From Escherichia coli (GTDB lineage Bacteria; Pseudomonadota; Gammaproteobacteria; Enterobacterales; Enterobacteriaceae), in the NCBI RefSeq assembly GCF_029227855.1, contig NZ_CP074356.1: a stretch of 64,000 nt of DNA; one strand, given 5' to 3'. Made by a program: the position numbers and the translations under genes. Each line of letters starts with the position of its first letter. The stretch's first letter is position 1. Under the pieces are notes generated by a model. The model searched no databases. It saw nothing but the letters and a program-made list of their open reading frames with translations, and was not told the origin of the DNA. Shown piece by piece: positions 21,865-38,486 of the stretch.

Positions 21865-21892
21865 GGGGGAATACCGTTTCCCCCTTTAATAA
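21865..21892 (+). terminator. Intrinsic terminator after the small ORF (ggggga-ataccgtt-tccccc then TTTAATAAAGCTATTTTT)
   Basis: 6-bp GC stem plus T-rich tail read directly; also lies just past the convergent yehK stop. Confidence 0.5.
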
Positions 21893-21894
21893 AG

Positions 21895-22215
21895 CTATTT
21901 TTCTATTTCTTGGTTGAATATATTCTGTAGTTCGCGATTAAAAATGGCTATTACCGTTTCTGGTGATTCGCCCCGTAATTTTCGCTCATCAATAAACTCA
22001 TCTCTTATATAAATCAACGCATCATTTATTAGCGGGTCGACATCCTCTCGATCACGTTGATGAAATGTTGGATGTAGCCGGAATCGCTCCAGTCGGTAGA
22101 CGGAACCTGTAAATAATTCAGAGCATTTATGGATCTCAAGTCTGAAGGAAAACGGATCTTCAGGTACAGGGACCTCATAATCGTAAATAGCAACCAGCTC
22201 TTTTTGCACGATCAT
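21895..22215 (-). CDS. yehK: Uncharacterised protein YehK
   Basis: 106-aa ORF, 60 bp downstream of yehI. Confidence 0.7.
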   Translation of the reverse strand: MIVQKELVAIYDYEVPVPEDPFSFRLEIHKCSELFTGSVYRLERFRLHPTFHQRDREDVDPLINDALIYIRDEFIDERKLRGESPETVIAIFNRELQNIFNQEIEK

Positions 22216-22275
22216 CGCTTTTCCCGGTGGCAGGTCGTGTTAATAACGGGCAGTCGCATCACTGCCCGCTGTGTT

Positions 22276-25200
22276 TTAATGGAAAATGACGTCGGGTGCG
22301 CTTAACGCTTCACTCAAATCAAACACATCAAGTTCGGCAAAAGTGACAGATTTATTGTCACGGTATACATGAAGAGAACGGAAGCTCATTAGCGCTTTGC
22401 TATCAACATTGTAGTGGTTAAAACCGGATGAAAACTTAAGGACCAGCCGGTACTCGCCCAGGTCATAGACAAATGCATTCTCATAGCCTGACTCCCAGCC
22501 TTTGTATCGCATTCCCATAAGTTGCCCAACGGTAGCAGATTTACCTTCCCAGCGATTCAAACTATTACTGGCTGACTCGTCAGGCGTGAGCAGTACTGTG
22601 CGCCGTGCCAATTGGCGAAAAGGCGGCATAATTTCGTAATCGGCAAAAAGCTGTGCAAACTCACTGCGCATTTCTGCTGCCATTTCTAACGGGTGGGCAA
22701 TGCCAATCAGAGCATCGGCAGGCAGGTCAATTGGCTCATCTTGCTCATTGCAGAACTCCCCCTCAGCGGCCACACGAAAGGCGTTGAGTAAACGACGCGG
22801 TTCATTTGCCGGATAAACACCCCATATTAATCGCTGAGTAACCAGACGGGTAAAGGGATGATTAACAAACAGAGAATGAAAATCTGCCAGCGACCAGCGT
22901 CGGGTGGTGCGCAGGGCAGTTTCAAGACGCGGGAGCAGGTTTTTGCTCACCTGAGTGGCATCTTTTTTTAGCCCTTTTAGTCGGGCCAGTGCCTCGGGTG
23001 CTTTCAGTTGATCGTCATCGGCGCGCAACCGGGGAACGCTTTTCTGGCGAACGTTTTGCTGATCAAAGATAACCGGGTTAAGGTTTTCATCGAAGCGAAC
23101 GGTAAATTGCCGTGGACCAAAATCAAAAATCAACGCCTGCGGATCATCAAGACCCAGTGTTGGGACTAATCTGTCCGCTAACTGTTCCTGGCTTAGCCCT
23201 CGATTTTCTGCGACCACCTGAAGAAATTCCGCCGCGTTATCACGTAAGGGGCGGGATTTCGCCCGTTGCGATATATGATGCAGCTGTATCAGTGCCATAT
23301 CATTATTCATCTGAGTAAGTATGTTCAGGCCGCTGACGGCACGGGCAGATTTGCCTTCCTGTGGCCAGGCAAGGATCTGTGTCGTCAGATCCCGTGCCGT
23401 GCTTTCGTCGCCAAAGAGACTTAACGCCAGAAATGCCCAGTTGTCTTTTGCGGGAGCACCAGCTTGTTGCCACGCGGTGAAAAGATCCCAGGCAAAAGCT
23501 GCCAGCGTTTGCGGCTGGCAGAAAGTTTTCAGTTGTTCCAGTCCGCTATAAACGTCCGCCCTGGGTAAAGCGCAGCATTTCGCCGATAATTTCCAGTGCG
23601 TCATCGGTAACAGGCTGATTATTCGTGATAAGGCGCGGCCTGGACCACATTGCCGGCTGCCAGAAATCAGGGGCTTTTGGAATGCGTGTCGGGTAAATCT
23701 CTATTGGACTCTGTTTAAGTAAATGCTCCAGGGCAGGCCATACATCTGTACGCTGCCAGCGGTTTGCCGCGGTTTGCAGCAATTCACCATGTCCCTGTTC
23801 GTAAAGTAAACGTAGGGCAAGTAATGCAGCTTCGCTATTATCGCTGGATTTGGTGAAGACAAGAGGGATAAGTGCAGTAGCCGTATGTTCCGGCCATTGT
23901 AAAATCCACTGGCGAGCCAGATCACGCTGCGCCGCGAAACGTCGCCAGACGCGGGCAACGGGCAGGGCCAGTTCTGTTGCGCCAAAATTTAAAATTAACG
24001 GAAATGTTTCTTTTGGACGATATGAAAAAGCCAACAGCAGACCTGGTAGAGCATCCAATCCGAAGATACTGAGAAAATAGTCCTCACCCGCTAACAGATG
24101 CTTTTTCTCATTGATACGTAGCCAGAAAGTCAAAGCCATCTCACGCGGCAACTGTGCCAATAAATACAGGTTCCAGATACTCTTTTCCCGACGATAGCGT
24201 GAGTAGCTGTCATTTTCCCATATGTTAATTAACACTTCTACGTGACCGCTGCGAAGCGCCTGTTCTGCTAATTGTGCTTCCGGGGAGTTCCAGCCATTCA
24301 GGATCTCTTCAACCCGCCCCTGGTAGTAATGCCACTGAACAATGAGTGAATTGCGTGCAGCATCCAGTTTTCCGGGGAGTATATAATTCAGAAACAGCCA
24401 TACATCATCTCCAAAACCCAGCTCCTGTAGTACAACTCGTCCACTTTTATGTTCCATGCGTTCCGAAAGAGATTCCGTGCTGAAATAACGGGCAGACTCA
24501 GTGGCGGCAAGCCTCTCTCGTTCGCCTGGTTGCCAGTAAACTTGCGGCGTTAATTCGAACGGTGCCAAATCAAGACGTGGAACTGTCATTTTTTTCTTAC
24601 TACGCCACGGTGGTGAAACGAGGATTTCAGGCATTTGGCTGTTATCGGTGCTATCAATAACCGTTTTAGGCGGTGCCGATAAATAACTATTCAGCACTGA
24701 CCGGGCTTGAGTACTTAACCACGGCATCACCTCTTCTGCCAGTTGTGGCTGCGATGCCATCAGCGTTTGTAACAGCGTACGCCAGTATTCATCACGTGCT
24801 TTTTGCTGTGCAGGCAGCTTTTTGTCTTCGATGATTGGATAACCAGGGCGCGTAGGTGGTTCTTTTAGCGCCAGCAGTTCTGCCAGTGCGGCAAGCGTCG
24901 CATGGGGGAAATTTTTACTGTATTTAGCTACACGTTGCAGGCTGGGTTTGTTTTTATCAGCAACTAACAGCAGGGTGCGGATGACCTGCGGATGGTTAAT
25001 TTGTACCAGCAGACTGCCGCAATCTTCTTTATGGGCATACATTGCCAGGCGTGGAACGGCTGCCAGTCCTTGTTCGCGCAAAAGGGCAGCGCAGGCCGCG
25101 TAGCCGAAGTGGTTTTCATGCGACATGTAGCTGGCTTCCCGATCGCTAAATATATCCTGGCTCCAGTAGCGTTCGAGTTTTCTCACCGCTCTGGGGTCAA

Positions 25201-25906
25201 TAGCAACAACTTTTAACCACTCCTTAGAATGAAAATGAGTCCACGGGCATTCAAGGCTTACCAACTCATTGGCGATTTCTGGTTTTTCCGGGAGGATCAG
25301 AGCAATAAAAGGGCGGCGAACTTTGGTTATTCCTGGCAGTGCGGCAATGAGTTTGTCGGCGCAACGCTGCCAGCTGCTTTCCTCTGCCAGAGAGAGATGC
25401 TTACGCAGTCGGAGATCGAATTCGTTATAGGTTTCTGATCGATAACCATAGCCATAATCCTCGTTCTGATACTGCAATGTCACTAGCAGAGGATCACTTT
25501 CATAACATCGTGTAATAAACTGGCGTGCAATCACCACCTCAGTCGCATATTCCAGTCCCTCTTGTTGGACGATTTCGTCGAGCAACTGTTGGCTATCATT
25601 TTGCGCGATACAGGCTAGCGCCGCCATTGTCCGGGCCGGAACTGAGGGTTTGTGTTCGCCAATCAAGTTGATGGCCTGCGTAATGGCCGACTGCCACTCC
25701 AGTGAAAAATTTTCATAACGCCAGACAATGTTTTTTTTCTTCTCAGCTTTTTGTAGCAATTCATCACCCAGTGTCTGGATGAGGCTTTCAGTGATAACAG
25801 GCACCGGTTCGCCCGGCCAACTGCGATGGCTGAGCGGCGTTTTGCCTTTTTTATATTTCAGTTCCACTTGGGCGTTATCCGCCAGCCACGGTAATTCCTT
25901 GTCCAT
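22276..25906 (-). pseudogene. yehI: yehI (MolR-family paralog lacking the N-terminal WGR domain) split by a frameshift near 23546-23604
   Basis: ORF-track pieces 23546-25906 and 22276-23604 are in different frames; start MDKELPWLADNAQ; both halves align with the two upstream paralogs across the break. Confidence 0.65.
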
Positions 25907-25915
25907 GCTCTTTCC

Positions 25916-25990
25916 TTATTCAAACAGGGCTTCAATATCGTTAATGAGTTCGCTGGCGGTGATGTCGTCGAGCACGGAGAACTGCGCTTC
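25916..25990. repeat. Near-identical 3' gene-end tract shared by paralogs B and A (partner at 29723-29800)
   Basis: Includes the identical 27-nt run tcgttaatgagttcgctggcggtgatg. Confidence 0.7.
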
Positions 25991-28900
25991 CTGAGTTGAA
26001 TTACTCCCCCAGCCATAGCTTTCCGCTTTGCCTTCCCATAGCCACAGCTTGCTTAAGACCTGCTCAGCGCTAAGATCGGCTGGTGACATACCCACCGCAA
26101 AACCTTCGTCGATTTCCATGATTAACGACCAGCGACCGAGAGGTTTGATCATCCATCCGATCCAGCCTCCATCCTGTGGTTCGCCCTTTATCCAGCCTTT
26201 ATTTGCCAGCCCCATGACCCGGCCGCTCGGGCATTTTCTGCCTGCCCAGCGGGTCAGTTCGCTGGCGTTGCGCTCGGCTTCTGTCAGGGCGTAACTGTTA
26301 CGTTCAAGCTGACGGAACGGTGGTAGCAGTTCGTAGTCGGCAAAAAGCTGACCAAAGGCGACAGCATCCGTCGGTGATATTTCCAGAACGTGAGGAATGC
26401 CAACAGAGATATCGCCTTCCTGCAAGGTGAAAAGATCATCGTCAGCGGTGCTGTAGCTGTTATCTTCCGCCACCCTAAAGCACGCCTGTAGCTGGTTTTC
26501 GGCGCTATAAACGCCCCAAATCAGACGGCGGGTTAAGTGACGAACCAGCGGATGCTCAACCAGGAAGAGCTGAAAGTTTTCCGGCGACCAGCGGCGGCGC
26601 AGGCACATGGCGGATTCCAGCCTTGCTACCTGCTGGGCGGCGACGGTACGCGCATCTTTTTTCAGCAATTTGTAGCGGTTAACAGCATCGTTTGCCTGTG
26701 ATTCATCATCGCTTTTATTGGGTTTAGGTAAGTCTTTCAGGCGGCTGCCGGAAACATCGCGCACAAACGGTTTTAAGGTTTCATCAAAGCTGACGGTGAA
26801 CTGCCGTGGGCCAAAATCCAGCAGCAGCGAACCGTTATCATCCAGACCGAGAGCCGGTGCTAACCGATCTTCAAGCTCCGCTACCGTCAGTTCGCGACTT
26901 TCGGCAATGTCGGCAATTTTCTCTTTCGCCCGCTCCTGTAATGCTTTGAATTTCAGTTTCTGGGCAATGCCGTTAAGCTGCATCAGGGCGATATCACTAC
27001 TGATAGCGGCGAGGATATCCAGCCCGACGGTGGCGCGTTTATGCTGGGATTCACCAGGCCAGGCGCGTATTAATGGCGTCAGTTTGCGGGCGGTGTTATC
27101 GTTACCGAGAACGCCTAACGCAGTGAACGCCCAACTCTCTTTCGACGGCGCGCCAGCGGTCTGCCAGGCGGTAAACAGATCCCAGGCAAATTCAGCCAGT
27201 GAGTCGGCGGTACAGGCATCTTTCACCTGCAATAATCCCGGATACAGCGCCTCCTCCTGATGGAAGCGGAGCATTTCACCGAGGTGCTGGAGTGCGCTAT
27301 CGGGCAGTGATTGGGCATTTGCTTTTAATACCGGGCGGGTCCAGATCGATGGCTGATAAAAGGCCGGAAGAGTGGGGATTTTTGTCGGGTGATTATCTAA
27401 GGGATCGAGCGCAAGCATAGCGTTCACCGCATTTGTTACTTCCGGCTGGTTATAACGCCGGGCGATTTCTTGCAGTAATGGTTGATGACCGTTTTCGGTA
27501 AGCATACGCAATGCAGCGCGGGCGTTATCCTGTGCTTCACCGGCTTTGCCGAGCGCCGCAGACAGCAGGCCGGTAATGGCGTGTTCCGGGTATTTCAGCA
27601 GCCAGGTGCGGGCGTCTTGTCGTAGGGTTTTGAGTTTGTTGAAGGCGCGGGCGACGGCAGGTGCCAGCTCACTCGCTGCGAAGTAATTCGTTATGGGCAA
27701 GGCTTCCTGTGGATAGCGTGCAAGTGAGTTTACTAACCCAGGTAATCCTTTGAGTCCAAAATGTAACATGGCGTATTCGGTATCGGTATGCGGAGATAGA
27801 GTAAGGGCATTCCATGCTCTTACTGCTTTCTCCAGCGGCAATGTTGTCAAAATCCCCAAATGCCAATAATGCCCGGTAGGTGAATGAAACACCTTAAATT
27901 CACTTATTAAAGTTGAATAATCTTCATTTAGCCATGCCTCAACTACCGCTTCGGGAGCTTTAATATATGTACCAGCGATCCGTCGTTGAAAACCCATCCT
28001 TGCCAACAGATTGGCAGTACTTTCTTCATGACTAACCGTGATGTGTTTTGAATACCAGATATATTTCGCCAAAAGTTGATTACTGATTTCTTCTGTCAGA
28101 TAACTGATTGGCTCAATACCTAATGGTGCTAAATCAAGCACTGGAATCGGCGATTTTTTCTTTTTCGAAAGCCATGGTGGGGAGACTACTATGGCCGGCA
28201 GTAGATCGGCGCTGGCATGGTTTGAGGGCTGTGTCAGTTGTTGCTGGCATGATTTCAGCACTGCAACTGCGGGTGTCGAAAGCCAGGGAATGACCTGTTC
28301 TGCTAGTGTCGGTTGCGAGATAAGCATCGTCATTAGCATAATGCGCCAACTATTCTCTTCTTTTTGCACTAGAAGTTCCGCCAGTGCTGCCAGTGCTGCG
28401 TGTGGGAACGCAGCGCAGGCTTTCGTCATTCGATCGTGACAGCGTTTAGTATGCCCTGCTACACGTATAAGCAGTGTTAATGCGAACGGATGATTGATAT
28501 GACGCAACACATCGGCGCAGTAGTCACTTGCGACATAGGGAGCAAATCGGGGCAGGGCCGCAACACCTTGCTCCTGTAATACGGTGGCTGACCATATCGC
28601 ACCACAATAGTAATCATCAAAAATGGCATATGGCTCGTGATATTTTTCTAATGAGGCAAGAATGTGCTCATCAGTCGCCACTATTTTTAGCCACTCCAGC
28701 GAGGGTAATTTCTTTTGCCCCAGTAGACGCTGGGCAATTTCATGTGCAATTTCTGGTTTTTCGGGCAATAACAAAGCAATTAATGGTTGCCGCCATTCTG
28801 GAATATGTGGAACTGCGGCAATAAGTTTTTGTGCACATTTTTGCCAGAGAGACTCTTCCGCCAGTGATAAATGTTTACGTAGGCGTAATTCAAAGCTGGA

Positions 28901-29710
28901 ATATTGCTGCAAATAATCAGGTGAAATGCCAGACGACAGGAAAACAATATTATTGTTGACATAATCCCATTCAATAGATATTTGTTGAAGATGTATTATT
29001 ACATCAGTAGCATATTCCAGACCGCCTTCCTGAATAATCTGATCCATAACATCCGCACGCTCTTTATATCTCGTGCAGTGCAGTTCAAGTGCCGCGAGTA
29101 CAGCCATTACCGGTGATGGTAATTTTGTCGTTTTCGGGCTGTTAATCAGATCGATCGCCTGAGCGATGAAGTTTTGCCACTCTAAAGTACAGGCGCTGAA
29201 GTCAAATGTAGCTGTTTTGTTATCCCGTTGCGACACGCCACAGGCTAAGCGACGTAACTGGGTTAATTTATCTACAGGTGTAACAGGATCTCCGGGAAAG
29301 CGGCGATGGCTTAAGGTGGTGGGTACGACTTCAAGCGGAAAAACGACAGCAATATCTTTTGCCAGCCACGGTAAAATAACGTCTGTATTTTTGTCAGCCA
29401 CGTAGAATTCTGGTGTAACTGAGGGCTGTTCCTGAATGATGGTAGAAAAGTCAGATAATTCGAGAGATTTCGTTACCGTTCGAGTATGTTTCGATGTAGC
29501 ATTCTCCGCATGTTCCACATACCCCTTTTTCGTTTTCTCCGCAATCAGCTTGAGTTCCGCTTTTTCCGCCGCCGCAGCATCTGCAAAGCTTTTTACCTGA
29601 CTTTGCCCGTTGGTGCCGACTTTGCCCCAACTGATATTCAGTTCGTTTCCCTGCTGCTCCACCGCCCAGAATTTATGTGATTTTTCGTCCTGATAAATAT
29701 AGGTTTTCAT
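25916..29710 (-). CDS. MolR-family protein, paralog B (N-terminal WGR domain, DUF4132-type C-terminal region), 1264 aa
   Basis: Start MKTYIYQDEKSHKFWAVEQQGNELNISWGKVGT (WGR motif); ends ITASELINDIEALFE; SD overlaps the stop of paralog A. Confidence 0.8.
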   Translation of the reverse strand: MKTYIYQDEKSHKFWAVEQQGNELNISWGKVGTNGQSQVKSFADAAAAEKAELKLIAEKTKKGYVEHAENATSKHTRTVTKSLELSDFSTIIQEQPSVTPEFYVADKNTDVILPWLAKDIAVVFPLEVVPTTLSHRRFPGDPVTPVDKLTQLRRLACGVSQRDNKTATFDFSACTLEWQNFIAQAIDLINSPKTTKLPSPVMAVLAALELHCTRYKERADVMDQIIQEGGLEYATDVIIHLQQISIEWDYVNNNIVFLSSGISPDYLQQYSSFELRLRKHLSLAEESLWQKCAQKLIAAVPHIPEWRQPLIALLLPEKPEIAHEIAQRLLGQKKLPSLEWLKIVATDEHILASLEKYHEPYAIFDDYYCGAIWSATVLQEQGVAALPRFAPYVASDYCADVLRHINHPFALTLLIRVAGHTKRCHDRMTKACAAFPHAALAALAELLVQKEENSWRIMLMTMLISQPTLAEQVIPWLSTPAVAVLKSCQQQLTQPSNHASADLLPAIVVSPPWLSKKKKSPIPVLDLAPLGIEPISYLTEEISNQLLAKYIWYSKHITVSHEESTANLLARMGFQRRIAGTYIKAPEAVVEAWLNEDYSTLISEFKVFHSPTGHYWHLGILTTLPLEKAVRAWNALTLSPHTDTEYAMLHFGLKGLPGLVNSLARYPQEALPITNYFAASELAPAVARAFNKLKTLRQDARTWLLKYPEHAITGLLSAALGKAGEAQDNARAALRMLTENGHQPLLQEIARRYNQPEVTNAVNAMLALDPLDNHPTKIPTLPAFYQPSIWTRPVLKANAQSLPDSALQHLGEMLRFHQEEALYPGLLQVKDACTADSLAEFAWDLFTAWQTAGAPSKESWAFTALGVLGNDNTARKLTPLIRAWPGESQHKRATVGLDILAAISSDIALMQLNGIAQKLKFKALQERAKEKIADIAESRELTVAELEDRLAPALGLDDNGSLLLDFGPRQFTVSFDETLKPFVRDVSGSRLKDLPKPNKSDDESQANDAVNRYKLLKKDARTVAAQQVARLESAMCLRRRWSPENFQLFLVEHPLVRHLTRRLIWGVYSAENQLQACFRVAEDNSYSTADDDLFTLQEGDISVGIPHVLEISPTDAVAFGQLFADYELLPPFRQLERNSYALTEAERNASELTRWAGRKCPSGRVMGLANKGWIKGEPQDGGWIGWMIKPLGRWSLIMEIDEGFAVGMSPADLSAEQVLSKLWLWEGKAESYGWGSNSTQEAQFSVLDDITASELINDIEALFE

Positions 29711-29722: not shown

Positions 29723-32700
29723 TTAATCAAAAAGTGATTCGATGTCGTTAATGAGTTCGCTGGCGGTGATGGCATCAAGCGCGGAGAACGTGAGCGAGGG
29801 CTGTGTACTGTAGCGTTCCCCTGGTGAAGTGATTTTTACGCTTTCAACAGGTAGCAGGTCGCTATACCCCGTTTCGCCATAAATTAATGAAAAATGTTCT
29901 GTTTCAAGTTCGAGAGCGCCATAAGGGGTAGATTTGCGCATCGCATAGACGCTGCCGCTTTCTTCCAGACGTTGCCAGCCTCGACGTTCCAGCCCGACAA
30001 TGCGCCCGGCCTGGCAAAGACGTCCTTGCCAGCGTATCAATTCATGGGTATCACGTTCATTATCAGTAAGGTGGTAATAACCACGATCGAGTTGGCGAAA
30101 GGGAGGAAGCTTTTCGTAATCAGCATAAATTTGCCCAAATGCAGTGGCGGATTCAGGAGATATTTCCAGCACATGCGGTATACCGATGTTTCCTGCTGGC
30201 AGCGTGAATAACTCATCCTGCGCATCGCTGTAAGTGCTGTCTTCTGCGACCCGGAAGCAGGCGATCAGCGTGTTTTCCTCAGTATATACCCCCCATAACA
30301 CCCGTCGGGTTAAGTGACGTACCAGCGGATGCTCCACCAGAAACAGGCGGAACTGCTCTGCCGTCCAGCGTCTGCGCTGGCACATATCCTGCTCCAGACG
30401 ATCAATCTGCTGGCTGGCAATGGCGTGCACATCTTTCTTCAATTGTTTGAAGAGGTTAACGGAGTCAGTTGCCAGTGTTTGATCATCGCTCTGATTTGGT
30501 TTGGGTAAATCTTTCAGGACTTTGCCGTTTGCATCGTGCACTACAGGTTTTAAGGTTTCGTCAAAACCAACGGTGAATTGACGTGGGCCGAAATCCAGTA
30601 TCAGCGAGCCACTGTTATCAAGCCCTAAATCTGGAGCCAGGCGGTCTTCCAGTTCAGCCATAGTCAGCCCACGGTTTTCAGCAACTATGTTGATTTTCTC
30701 GCGGGCATGTTCCTGTAATGCTTTGAATTTAATTTTTCGCGCGATGCCATTAAGCAGCATTAGCGCAACATCGCTGCCAATATCAGCTAATACATCCAGC
30801 CCGTAAACCGCGCGTTTATGCTGGGATTCACCCGGCCAGGCACGGATAAGCGGGGTTAATTTACGTGCGGTGTCGTCATTGCCTAAAATCCCAAGCGAAG
30901 TAAATGCCCAGTTTTCTTTTGCGGGTGCGCCAGCTTCTGTCCATGCCGTGTAGAGATCCCAGCCAAAGTCAGCCAGTGATTCGTGGGTGAAGGTCTCTTT
31001 GATGGTCGCCAGCCCAGCGTAGGAGGTAATGTCGCGTGGAAAGCTCAACATTGTGCCCAGGTGGCGCATAGCGTCATCTGGCAGAGGCAGGTTGTTACTT
31101 TTAAGCCGTGGTCTGCGCCATAAGGTGAACTGATAAAAGCCGGGCAGTGGGGCGATTTTAGCGGGATATTCTTCCAGCGGATCGCTATCGAACAATGTTG
31201 CCAGCGCAGCTAAAACATCAGGTTGGTTGTATCTCCGGCCGATTTCTTCAATCGTTTCTCGCTGGTTTAATTTCACTAGCAGGCGGAATGCCTGGCGGGC
31301 ATATTCCCGATTTTGGCACGGTTTGCCCAGCGCCAAAGGCAGTAGCCCGGCGGCGGCATGGCGCGGGTTATTTGCCAGCCAATTAATGGCATCCTTGTAA
31401 GCCATTTTTTTCTGTAACCGCTGCGCCATTGGTAAGGCTAGTTCACTGGCCCCAATAAAGAGGGTGAATATCCACAGTCGTTGATGATCTCGTTGCAAGC
31501 AGGTCATAAACGCAGGAATGGCCGTACTACCAAAAACTGCCAGAATCTCTTTCTCACCTGAATATCGCTCCTCAATGATTATTTGGTTGAGAAATGAAAT
31601 CGCCTGTTGTCCCGGTAAGTAACAAAGCGCAGATAGATTCCAGCTTTTGTTGGCATTGTTGTGATATTTCGCAAACTCAGCTTTTAGTGCTGGAAAATCA
31701 AAGCGCAACAAGGCATCAACAGCGCTTTGCGGTATATATTTTTTTTCATGTAAGTCATCTTCGCAATGCAGCCATTCATTAAAACCTAATTGCCAAAGGA
31801 TTTGTTGTTCTGGTGTAAAAGGAATGAAAGATGTCTCCCAGCTTTCTTTTTCAATTAGTGGCAGGTCGGTAAATAAGGTTTGCTGTGATGACTGATATTG
31901 CGCGATTTCACTGAATCTGGATATGTCAGTATGACTGATTAACTCTGTAATTCCTGGCGTGATGTCAGTGACTGCAGGGATGGGAAGCACCGGTAAATCA
32001 AATACGGGTATTACATTCGTTTTCTTATTTATTACCCACGGTGGAGCGACAAATAGCTCCGGCAACATATCCGCAGTGGCGTATTCACATTCTTCAGCGA
32101 CTAACTGAGTACGACATTCAGATAAGATGCCTGCCGCTTTAGCATTAACCCAGGGAATGACGTCAGTGACTAAATCTGGCGTGGCGGTAATCAGTTTGAC
32201 AAGCGCTTTACGCCACTGTGCATCTTCATGTATTGCCAGTAAAGTTGCATAAGCGGCAAGAGCCGCAGCGGGATGTTTTTGACAGGCTTTGCTTAAGTAT
32301 TCCAGGTGCTTTTTCTTGCCAATTACACCGAGGATCAGAATTTGAATCGCATCCGGGTGATTCGTTTTCCATAGCCATTTGACAAGATCTTCAGTCTCGC
32401 TGATGCGCTCGAAGAGATAAGTGGGATTGTCAGAATGCTCTTCCGTAAACTCAAGAAGTATCCGGCTTACACCGCGCACCCCATTATTTGCCAGCAACAT
32501 TGCCAGATAAGCGCGAAAATCATGATACAACGGTGGGAAGTCGTATTTTTCTGCTGTAGTCAGAGCGGCGTCATCGGTTACCACCAGTCTTAACCAGGTC
32601 ATCGCCGGAACGTTTTGATCTGCATAACGTAGCGCCATAGCATTGGCAATATCCGGGCGTTCAGGGAGCAGTAACGCCGCAAAAGGTTGCCGTGCTGGGG

Positions 32701-33520
32701 ATAGCGAGGGAATAGCAGCGAGAACTTTATCTACACAGCGTTGCCACTCATCTTCTGAAGCGAGTGAAAGATGATGACATAGACGTTGATGCCAGTTCGG
32801 TAGTGATTCTGCTTTGAGATCAGGGGGAATAATGGTGGTGACGTCGGCTTTTACTGGTTTATATTTGAGTTGAAGAGCGAGAAGGGCGATTTCAACGGTA
32901 GTTTCCAGACCACAGCGAATGACTAAGTCATCGACCAGTTCATCTGTAGAGTAAGAGTTCCATAAATTCCAGAGCAATGCCGCATCAGATTGTATACTTC
33001 CTGTTTGTTGATTATTCAGAATTCGCCTTTGTAACTCGGCAAACGCCAGCTGCCAGTTTTCAGGATAAGAGCGGTAATTATTGTCGGGGTCATATGCCCT
33101 GGTGTTATTCGCGATGCGCTTCCATATTTGGCCATCTTTGTACAGATAATTGATCTCTCTGGGGCGAGAGCGATGAGGAAAAGCAAATCGATTAATATCG
33201 CCAGTTACCGGAATGACTGCATCATCAGCCACCCATGGGCGTTTGTTTTTACTCTCAGGGGAGGTTTCAACTTCAGGAGTGGCTTTGGTGATGGGGGGGA
33301 TATGCACGTTTGCTAAAGCATTTTCCACATAGCCTTTTTTCGTTTTCTCTGCGATCAGCTTAAGCTCCGCTTTTGCCGCTGCCGCAGCATCCGCAAAACT
33401 TTTTACCTGGTTTTGCCCTTTGGTGCCAACTTTTCCCCAACAGATATGCAACTCGTTTCCCTGTTGCTCCACCGCCCAGAATTTATGTGATTTTTCGTCC
33501 TGAAAGATAAAGTGCCTCAT
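29723..33520 (-). CDS. molR: MolR-family protein, paralog A (N-terminal WGR domain, DUF4132-type C-terminal region), 1265 aa
   Basis: Start MRHFIFQDEKSHKFWAVEQQGNELHICWGKVGT; ends ITASELINDIESLFD; first gene after the IS200. Confidence 0.8.
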   Translation of the reverse strand: MRHFIFQDEKSHKFWAVEQQGNELHICWGKVGTKGQNQVKSFADAAAAAKAELKLIAEKTKKGYVENALANVHIPPITKATPEVETSPESKNKRPWVADDAVIPVTGDINRFAFPHRSRPREINYLYKDGQIWKRIANNTRAYDPDNNYRSYPENWQLAFAELQRRILNNQQTGSIQSDAALLWNLWNSYSTDELVDDLVIRCGLETTVEIALLALQLKYKPVKADVTTIIPPDLKAESLPNWHQRLCHHLSLASEDEWQRCVDKVLAAIPSLSPARQPFAALLLPERPDIANAMALRYADQNVPAMTWLRLVVTDDAALTTAEKYDFPPLYHDFRAYLAMLLANNGVRGVSRILLEFTEEHSDNPTYLFERISETEDLVKWLWKTNHPDAIQILILGVIGKKKHLEYLSKACQKHPAAALAAYATLLAIHEDAQWRKALVKLITATPDLVTDVIPWVNAKAAGILSECRTQLVAEECEYATADMLPELFVAPPWVINKKTNVIPVFDLPVLPIPAVTDITPGITELISHTDISRFSEIAQYQSSQQTLFTDLPLIEKESWETSFIPFTPEQQILWQLGFNEWLHCEDDLHEKKYIPQSAVDALLRFDFPALKAEFAKYHNNANKSWNLSALCYLPGQQAISFLNQIIIEERYSGEKEILAVFGSTAIPAFMTCLQRDHQRLWIFTLFIGASELALPMAQRLQKKMAYKDAINWLANNPRHAAAGLLPLALGKPCQNREYARQAFRLLVKLNQRETIEEIGRRYNQPDVLAALATLFDSDPLEEYPAKIAPLPGFYQFTLWRRPRLKSNNLPLPDDAMRHLGTMLSFPRDITSYAGLATIKETFTHESLADFGWDLYTAWTEAGAPAKENWAFTSLGILGNDDTARKLTPLIRAWPGESQHKRAVYGLDVLADIGSDVALMLLNGIARKIKFKALQEHAREKINIVAENRGLTMAELEDRLAPDLGLDNSGSLILDFGPRQFTVGFDETLKPVVHDANGKVLKDLPKPNQSDDQTLATDSVNLFKQLKKDVHAIASQQIDRLEQDMCQRRRWTAEQFRLFLVEHPLVRHLTRRVLWGVYTEENTLIACFRVAEDSTYSDAQDELFTLPAGNIGIPHVLEISPESATAFGQIYADYEKLPPFRQLDRGYYHLTDNERDTHELIRWQGRLCQAGRIVGLERRGWQRLEESGSVYAMRKSTPYGALELETEHFSLIYGETGYSDLLPVESVKITSPGERYSTQPSLTFSALDAITASELINDIESLFD

Positions 33521-33617: not shown

Positions 33618-34326
33618 TTATAAATAAATATCCTCCGGCATAGCCGGAGGTTTTTCAAATGCGCCTATAAGGCTCTCTTACCAGCCGCGCCCTAACAGGC
33701 GCACACGATCTGACATTTGCATCCAACTTCGTTACTTACGGCCCGTAAACGGGCTGCCCGGATAGGGAATCGATAACTGCTCTCCCATTTTATCCTCTTC
33801 AAGCTGGTGCTTTATGTAATCCTGTATCTTCGCCGTGTTCTTACCCACCGTATCGACGTAATACCCTCTGCACCAGAACTCCCTGTTCCTGTATTTGAAT
33901 TTCAAATCACCAAACTGCTCGTAAAGCATCAGACTGCTTTTCCCTTTCAGATATCCCATAAAGCCTGATACGCTCATTTTGGGCGGGATCTCCACAAGCA
34001 TATGGATATGATCTGCACAGCATTCAGCTTCCAGAATCCGTACACTTTTCCACTCACACAGCTTTCTCAAAATACAGCCTATTGCTCTACGCTTCTCTCT
34101 GTAGAACACCTGTCTTCGGTATTTTGGCGCAAATACTATGTGATATTTACAGTTCCATCGGGTGTGCGCTAAGCTCTTTTCGTTCCCCATTGGGACCCCC
34201 TTTTGATTTCTTGTTTGACACTTGCAGTTGCCAGACCGCAAGGTGTTTTAACAAATCAAAAGGGGTTTTAATAACTGGCTCAAAGCTGAAAGCTTTCCGG
34301 AACCCCCAGCCTAGCTGGGGGTTTTC
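33618..34326 (-). mobile_element. IS200 insertion sequence (IS200/IS605 family); boundaries approximate
   Basis: Contains a Y1 HUH transposase gene; perfect hairpin cccccagc-cta-gctggggg at 34303-34321; 13-bp inverted repeat ccccttttgattt/aaatcaaaagggg (34197-34265) over the tnpA start; IS200 has no terminal inverted repeats, so ends were set by the expected ~0.7 kb size. Confidence 0.6.
33732..34190 (-). CDS. tnpA: IS200 transposase TnpA (Y1 HUH transposase, 152 aa)
   Basis: MGNEKSLAHTRWNCKYHIVFAPKYRR...HIHMLVEIPP (HUH motif); ORF track extends upstream to 34241 via an alternative start; start coordinate uncertain by about 1 nt. Confidence 0.85.
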   Translation of the reverse strand: MGNEKSLAHTRWNCKYHIVFAPKYRRQVFYREKRRAIGCILRKLCEWKSVRILEAECCADHIHMLVEIPPKMSVSGFMGYLKGKSSLMLYEQFGDLKFKYRNREFWCRGYYVDTVGKNTAKIQDYIKHQLEEDKMGEQLSIPYPGSPFTGRK

Positions 34327-34327
34327 T

Positions 34328-34360
34328 GTGCACAAGAAAAGGCGCTGTCGATACAGCGCC
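34328..34360 (-). terminator. metG intrinsic terminator (ggcgctgt-cgat-acagcgcc then TTTTCTT on the - strand)
   Basis: Hairpin 11 nt after the metG stop; the IS200 sits immediately beyond it. Confidence 0.6.
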
Positions 34361-38199: not shown

Positions 38200-38486
38200 C
38201 TGGTTTTTTAATCGAATTTAGAAAGCTGAAATCATCCGTGTGAATGATTTCAGCTTTTTTATTGATATCAATAATACCATTTACAAAAATCTGCATTAAT
38301 TAATAGATGTGATAAATATTTAATATGCTTAAGTATTTGTTGTATTTATATTGCAATAGTTAATTTGTTTTAAATCAATAAAACAATATGTTTACATTGC
38401 TGCAACTTTTTTTTGATGTGAGAAATTTGTTTCCAAGAGATACAGACTCTTAACAACCAAAAATAAATTTTATTAAGGAACATATT
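38200..38486 (+). promoter_or_regulatory. AT-rich upstream region of the yehD fimbrial operon
   Basis: Long A/T tracts read directly; typical of H-NS-silenced chaperone-usher fimbrial promoters (inference). Confidence 0.35.

Follow-up and report, generated by a model that had tools for sequence, protein, structure and literature searches.

The gene yehI of Escherichia coli is split into two open reading frames (ORFs) in the DNA analysed here, a 64-kb stretch hereafter called the window, and the split is best explained by a genuine and recent loss-of-function mutation, in which TT was lost from a run of five Ts (T5) as further decay after the loss of yehL and yehM; we put the probability of this reading at about 0.9. 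Intact yehI alleles read GGACGTTTTTATAGC, whereas the window reads GGACGTTTATAGC, and an alignment with yehI of TUM14771 contains this one indel in the gene. The yehI of the window is an ordinary pseudogene, which RefSeq has already annotated in the sister genome JNEC-KY178.

The yehI locus and its lesion

The region belongs to the E. coli chromosome and includes metG, three DUF4132 genes, yehK, yehLMPQ, and yehR. The 3.8 kb around the yehI break has matches in 5335 of 5426 complete E. coli genomes, of which JNEC-KY178 (NZ_AP045174.1) alone is 100% identical over that length, while the next-best genomes are 99.9% identical and 2 nt longer than the window. The yehI pseudogene as a whole occupies positions 22276–25906 on the minus strand, with an intact yehK (21895–22215, minus strand) directly downstream. 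On its other side lie two intact genes on the minus strand, each encoding a paralog with WGR and DUF4132 domains: one at 25916–29710 (1264 aa, 41% identity to YehI) and one at 29723–33520 (1265 aa, 34% identity to YehI). The genes yehP (VWA_CoxE; 16871–18007, minus strand) and yehQ (SWIM zinc finger; 14874–16874, minus strand) are intact as well. In the annotation of JNEC-KY178, yehM, yehL, and yehI are the only pseudogenes among the approximately 57 annotated genes of the 64-kb region.

The two pieces of yehI lie in different frames of the minus strand and have 59 nt in common. The 5′ piece (23546–25906) is a 786-aa ORF without a Pfam domain, while the 3′ piece (22276–23604) is a 442-aa ORF, in which true YehI sequence begins only at about position 23549 and continues downward from there. 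This layout agrees with the preliminary description of the window, including the end of the upstream frame at ...IGEMLRFTQGGRL followed by a stop codon, the continuation of the downstream frame as ...ADVYSGLEQLKTFCQPQTLAAFAWDLF, and the paralog string LRFHQEEALYPGLLQVKDACTADSLAEFAWDLF, which is found in the adjacent paralog at 25916–29710 and aligns at the position of the break. That description had placed the break within 23546–23604, which is correct, and specifically in or next to a C/G run at 23556–23564, which misses the site by a few bases; the break is the change from T5 to T3 at positions 23550–23552.

Specifically, the window has T3 at 23550–23552 (minus strand) where intact alleles have T5, a 2-nt deletion that changes the reading frame at codon 785/786 and places a premature TAG (23546–23548, minus strand) in frame two codons on, so that the shifted frame ends ...CGT TTA TAG. 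T5 is present at this site in all nine aligned yehI alleles, which are 92–100% identical. When TT is put back, yehI of the window becomes an uninterrupted ORF of 1210 aa that differs from TUM14771 YehI by two residues. Since the two pieces line up in order along a single protein of 1210 aa in relatives, the split is not a chance juxtaposition of ORFs. Furthermore, the yehI genes of TUM14771 and M217 (RefSeq, 1210 aa) occupy the same locus with the same synteny (metG, DUF4132 paralogs, yehI, yehK, yehLMPQ) and are 99.9% identical to the window in DNA sequence, except that the window allele lacks 2 nt of T5 and is consequently split and truncated. A frameshift that divides a normally single gene had been proposed in the preliminary description, with the caveat that most strains might naturally have yehI as two genes; in the close relatives TUM14771 and M217 and in six of seven genomes spread across lineages, the gene is one coding sequence (CDS) of 1210 aa, and the caveat therefore does not apply.

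The only Pfam domain of intact YehI is DUF4132 (PF13569), which lies wholly inside the downstream piece, at 22495–23049 (minus strand), corresponding to residues 186–370 of the 3′ ORF and residues 954–1138 of intact YehI. In the downstream piece the domain scores 162.5 bits, above the Pfam gathering cut-off of 27. The DUF4132 domain, the collinearity with orthologues over the full length, and the retained chromosomal context identify the gene as a member of the YehI family, and an indel that is not a multiple of 3, together with a premature stop that removes conserved sequence (DUF4132), identifies it as a frameshifted pseudogene. An NCBIfam scan returned nothing for YehI, and for the two paralogs it returned only sub-threshold matches of their WGR regions to a Leptospira model. 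With the lesion, yehI can encode no more than an N-terminal fragment of 786 aa, in which the conserved C-terminal third of the protein, including DUF4132, is missing; it is conceivable that this fragment is stable and has residual or altered activity.

There is one terminator-like feature downstream of the new stop codon. A G+C-rich hairpin with an 8-bp stem, CTGCCAGC...GCTGGCAG followed by CTTTTGCC, is located at 23499–23521 (minus strand), 25 nt past the new TAG, in sequence that is now outside translation. Such a hairpin might add polarity on yehK.

Order of the lesions and neighbouring elements

The yehI deletion is the third ORF-breaking lesion of the block, as had been noted before. The gene yehL (20242–21319, minus strand), which encodes a MoxR-like AAA_5 ATPase, is a pseudogene owing to an 11-bp deletion near 20963, and the exact allele is present in 220 genomes; yehM (18000–20231, minus strand), which encodes a DUF5682 protein, is a pseudogene owing to an amber mutation of TCG (Ser224) to TAG at 19560–19562, and the exact allele is present in 214 genomes. 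The already inactivated yehM has in addition lost 48 bp in frame at 18304/18305, where 9-bp direct repeats (GCGCCAGCA) flank the deletion, the second one that is specific to the clone; in the matches listed, only JNEC-KY178 matches the sequence with this deletion in a single piece. In TUM14771, yehI, yehL, and yehM are all intact, while M217 carries both the yehL deletion and the yehM amber mutation next to an intact yehI. Because M217 combines the two lesions with an intact yehI, the lesions of yehL and yehM are older and predate the yehI deletion. The three lesions had been called independent, which is accurate in that they are separate mutational events, but they differ in age: those of yehL and yehM are common to approximately 215–220 genomes, and that of yehI belongs to one clone.

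The order of the lesions suggests how the yehI deletion may have come about and persisted. The two Ts were probably lost by replication slippage. YehI appears to be part of a multi-gene system, comprising the tandem WGR/DUF4132 paralogs together with YehL, YehM, YehP, and YehQ, and the lesion in yehI would be tolerated in a system already without YehL and YehM. On the basis of the gene neighbourhood, the yehI lesion and the 48-bp yehM deletion would represent continued neutral decay of an already non-functional system, a reading that we adopt because yehL and yehM were inactivated earlier in the lineage. A counterpoint to decay is that the two WGR/DUF4132 paralogs, yehP, yehQ, and yehK are still intact in the window.

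Comparison with M217 also reveals a step in divergence. Approximately 170 SNPs separate the two sequences in 12100–19153, while there are none in 19153–23549, up to the yehI lesion. Position 19153, inside yehM, looks like a recombination boundary in this comparison.

Two further elements accompany the block. The intergenic region between yehK and yehL contains a single-copy zor-orz type I toxin-antitoxin locus at 21431–21506 (minus strand) and 21752–21841 (plus strand), with an antitoxin RNA, OrzO-P (101 bits to Rfam RF02083), and an ORF of 29 aa, MDTLTQKLTVLIAVLELLVALLRLIDLLK; it is the known locus that Fozo et al. 2010 (PMC2887945) placed between yehI and yehL. An IS200C element is inserted between the outermost DUF4132 paralog and metG, at about 33623–34330 of the window. 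Its tnpA is annotated in JNEC-KY178, its region includes a match to Rfam STnc490 (34200–34323, minus strand), and the element is absent from the corresponding site in TUM14771.

Distribution of the allele and alternative readings of the split

Of 5217 complete E. coli genomes, JNEC-KY178 alone contains an exact match to an 81-mer centred on the yehI lesion. In that genome, PGAP/RefSeq marks yehI (AC0J0T_RS08530) and yehL as 'frameshifted' and yehM as carrying an 'internal stop'. The yehI pseudogene of JNEC-KY178 has the identical lesion, and the yehL and yehM lesions, the 48-bp yehM deletion, and the IS200C insertion are likewise common to JNEC-KY178 and the window, and yet the two are different assemblies, with 6 SNPs and 1 homopolymer indel between them over 64 kb. 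The exact 786-aa product is furthermore encoded on seven contigs of Logan, a collection built by direct assembly of public sequencing runs; both contigs that we retrieved (SRR14933785 and SRR14933787) contain T3 and match the window at 100% identity over 8.3 kb. On this sequence evidence, the yehI deletion is regarded as a real mutation of a small clone.

The sole indel between the window and JNEC-KY178 is located elsewhere, in a run of eight Ts at 38407–38414 (plus strand), approximately 72 nt upstream of the fimbrial gene yehD, which is T7 in JNEC-KY178. Either a true difference in run length or an error of sequencing could account for this.

Two alternatives to a real loss of function take the length of the T run as their starting point. 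If the deletion were a sequencing or assembly artefact, the strain would truly have T5 and an intact yehI; the lesion does lie in a homopolymer, the class of site at which long-read assemblies err, and the T8/T7 difference shows that the window and JNEC-KY178 disagree on one homopolymer elsewhere. The usual error, however, is of 1 nt, while the change here is of 2 nt in a short T5 run, and no other indel relative to M217 occurs across approximately 8 kb (19153–27498). Moreover, the allele recurs in JNEC-KY178 and on the seven independently assembled Logan contigs, of which the two checked are identical to the window, and strains with the JNEC-KY prefix were sequenced by Illumina and Nanopore and assembled with Hybracter, according to a preprint whose text does not name KY178. 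Because the allele is also found on the seven read-derived Logan contigs, we conclude that the deletion is not an assembly artefact, a possibility that we consider highly improbable; T3 occurs both in another genome and in contigs built from sequencing runs, which speaks against the earlier caveat that raw reads might restore the frame. A reversible change in the length of the T run that turns yehI on and off, i.e. phase variation, would likewise be manifested as a homopolymer length change, but the tract has only five Ts and is T5 in nine of nine diverse aligned alleles, T3 occurs in a single complete genome, and the change is −2 where ±1 is expected of such switches, so that this possibility is practically negligible.

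The other two alternatives would preserve a function for the sequence downstream of the break. Programmed +1 ribosomal frameshifting in the 59-nt overlap, in the manner of prfB, would yield full-length YehI, and the arrangement loosely resembles a prfB-type site in having a 0-frame stop (TAG) directly past the lesion and a purine-rich stretch, GGCGGA, 3 nt upstream of the last sense codon; in addition, the neighbouring gene yehP is a reported +1 candidate, in that the FSscan study (PMC2790909) reported a 16-nt cassette of K-12 yehP, GTGGAGTATGGTCGGC, to be prone to +1 frameshifting, and an exact copy of the cassette is present in yehP of the window at 17134–17149 (minus strand). Unlike a prfB-type site, the arrangement in yehI is unconserved, being the product of a deletion specific to one clone (T5 in nine of nine aligned alleles; no T3 allele in 5216 other genomes), and it does not allow re-pairing of the P-site tRNA: by inspection under established decoding rules, a shift from UUA to UAU retains one of three pairs and a shift from CGU to GUU retains none. 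GGCGGA, for its part, matches four of six positions of the Shine-Dalgarno core (GGAGGU), and intact alleles have these bases too, while for transcriptional slippage T3 is far too short. Programmed frameshifting is hence hardly credible, and the low priority given to it in the preliminary description is appropriate. Functional gene fission, in which the 786-aa protein and a separately translated C-terminal DUF4132 protein both work, draws on the length of both ORFs, on the complete DUF4132 of the C-terminal ORF, and on the existence of short DUF4132 proteins of 370–700 aa in the representative library. Against it, the only start of the 442-aa ORF is ATG 23604, which lies out of frame inside the upstream ORF, 59 nt before its stop, and has no Shine-Dalgarno-like sequence ahead of it on inspection; because of these properties, the 442-aa ORF is most likely left untranslated. 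No promoter-like site on the minus strand emerged near the lesion when the surrounding sequence was scanned for promoters and terminators, and the allele, confined to one clone and without later changes, gives no sign of maintenance. In addition, the C-terminal 440 aa of YehI match 5627 representative clusters, the best 150 of which are mostly 1100–1300 aa long with the matched region at the C-terminal end; given this length and position, most of these 150 hold both parts in one polypeptide, the region being fused to an N-terminal part of approximately 700–850 aa. Fission is accordingly very unlikely. We considered each of these four alternatives for yehI and rejected it in favour of a genuine loss-of-function deletion.

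Lesions in other lineages and the DUF4132–YehLMPQ block

We compared the PGAP annotation of the block in seven E. coli genomes chosen to span the ranking by similarity, and in four of the seven PGAP marks one or more genes of the block as pseudogenes. In particular, a K-12 derivative has pseudogenes of a molR-like DUF4132 paralog and of yehQ; O157:H7 has pseudogenes of two paralogs and of yehM, the latter with a stop at residue 510; 13KWH46 has a yehI pseudogene with a 1-nt deletion at alignment column 168; and FDAARGOS_1259 has a yehK pseudogene. These are inactivating lesions independent of those in the window, in different genes or at different positions. Truncated YehI fragments are also numerous as singleton clusters in the protein collection, and a resistance transposon has been reported in the 'DUF4132 region' of ST131 sublineage L1a (PMC9334617). 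Judged by these annotations and sequences, lesions in the DUF4132-yeh block are not unusual in E. coli, each one that was checked being at a different position.

The domain composition of the block is compatible with a multi-component system. YehL contains AAA_5 (MoxR-like), YehM DUF5682, YehP VWA_CoxE, and YehQ SWIM, and the two upstream paralogs contain WGR and DUF4132. A module of AAA_5, DUF5682, VWA_CoxE, and SWIM genes adjoins DUF4132 genes in Klebsiella grimontii and at two distant metagenomic loci, which have two different gene orders, and tandem DUF4132 paralogs are found at two further distant loci. One homolog, in Serratia fonticola, is solitary, without a YehLMPQ-like module, and the coupling is therefore not obligatory. 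This small sample of gene neighbourhoods supports a functional link between DUF4132 genes and the YehLMPQ module.

The number of tandem DUF4132 paralogs varies among the loci compared (L006–L012, L016, L017, and L019), with two to three in E. coli lineages, two in K. grimontii, and at least four in the distant contig L017. The variation in copy number suggests duplication and turnover of these genes.

None of the eight proteins of the block matches an anti-phage model of PADLOC-DB v2, and in the literature on yehI, DUF4132, and MoxR/vWA/SWIM/WGR we found no functional study of YehI, the relevant reports being limited to the transposon in ST131, the zor-orz locus, and the FSscan study of yehP. 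A broader proposal is that the DUF4132 paralogs and YehLMPQ constitute one conserved system, costly or related to conflict, that has been repeatedly and independently inactivated in E. coli, in this clone by steps that began with yehL and yehM and went on to yehI and the 48-bp yehM deletion; we regard this proposal as speculative and rather unlikely.

For the annotation of this strain, yehI, yehL, and yehM are best regarded as non-functional, and separate gene calls for the 786-aa and 442-aa ORFs should be avoided. The yehI lesion by itself matters little and represents a routine pseudogene. If, on the other hand, the block were one such system and its loss were favoured by selection and not neutral, the locus would serve as a natural experiment from which to learn what this uncharacterised system does and what it costs. 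Taken with the gene neighbourhood conserved in distant bacteria, the independent lesions across E. coli lineages may offer a modest lead to the function of a widespread, uncharacterised system.
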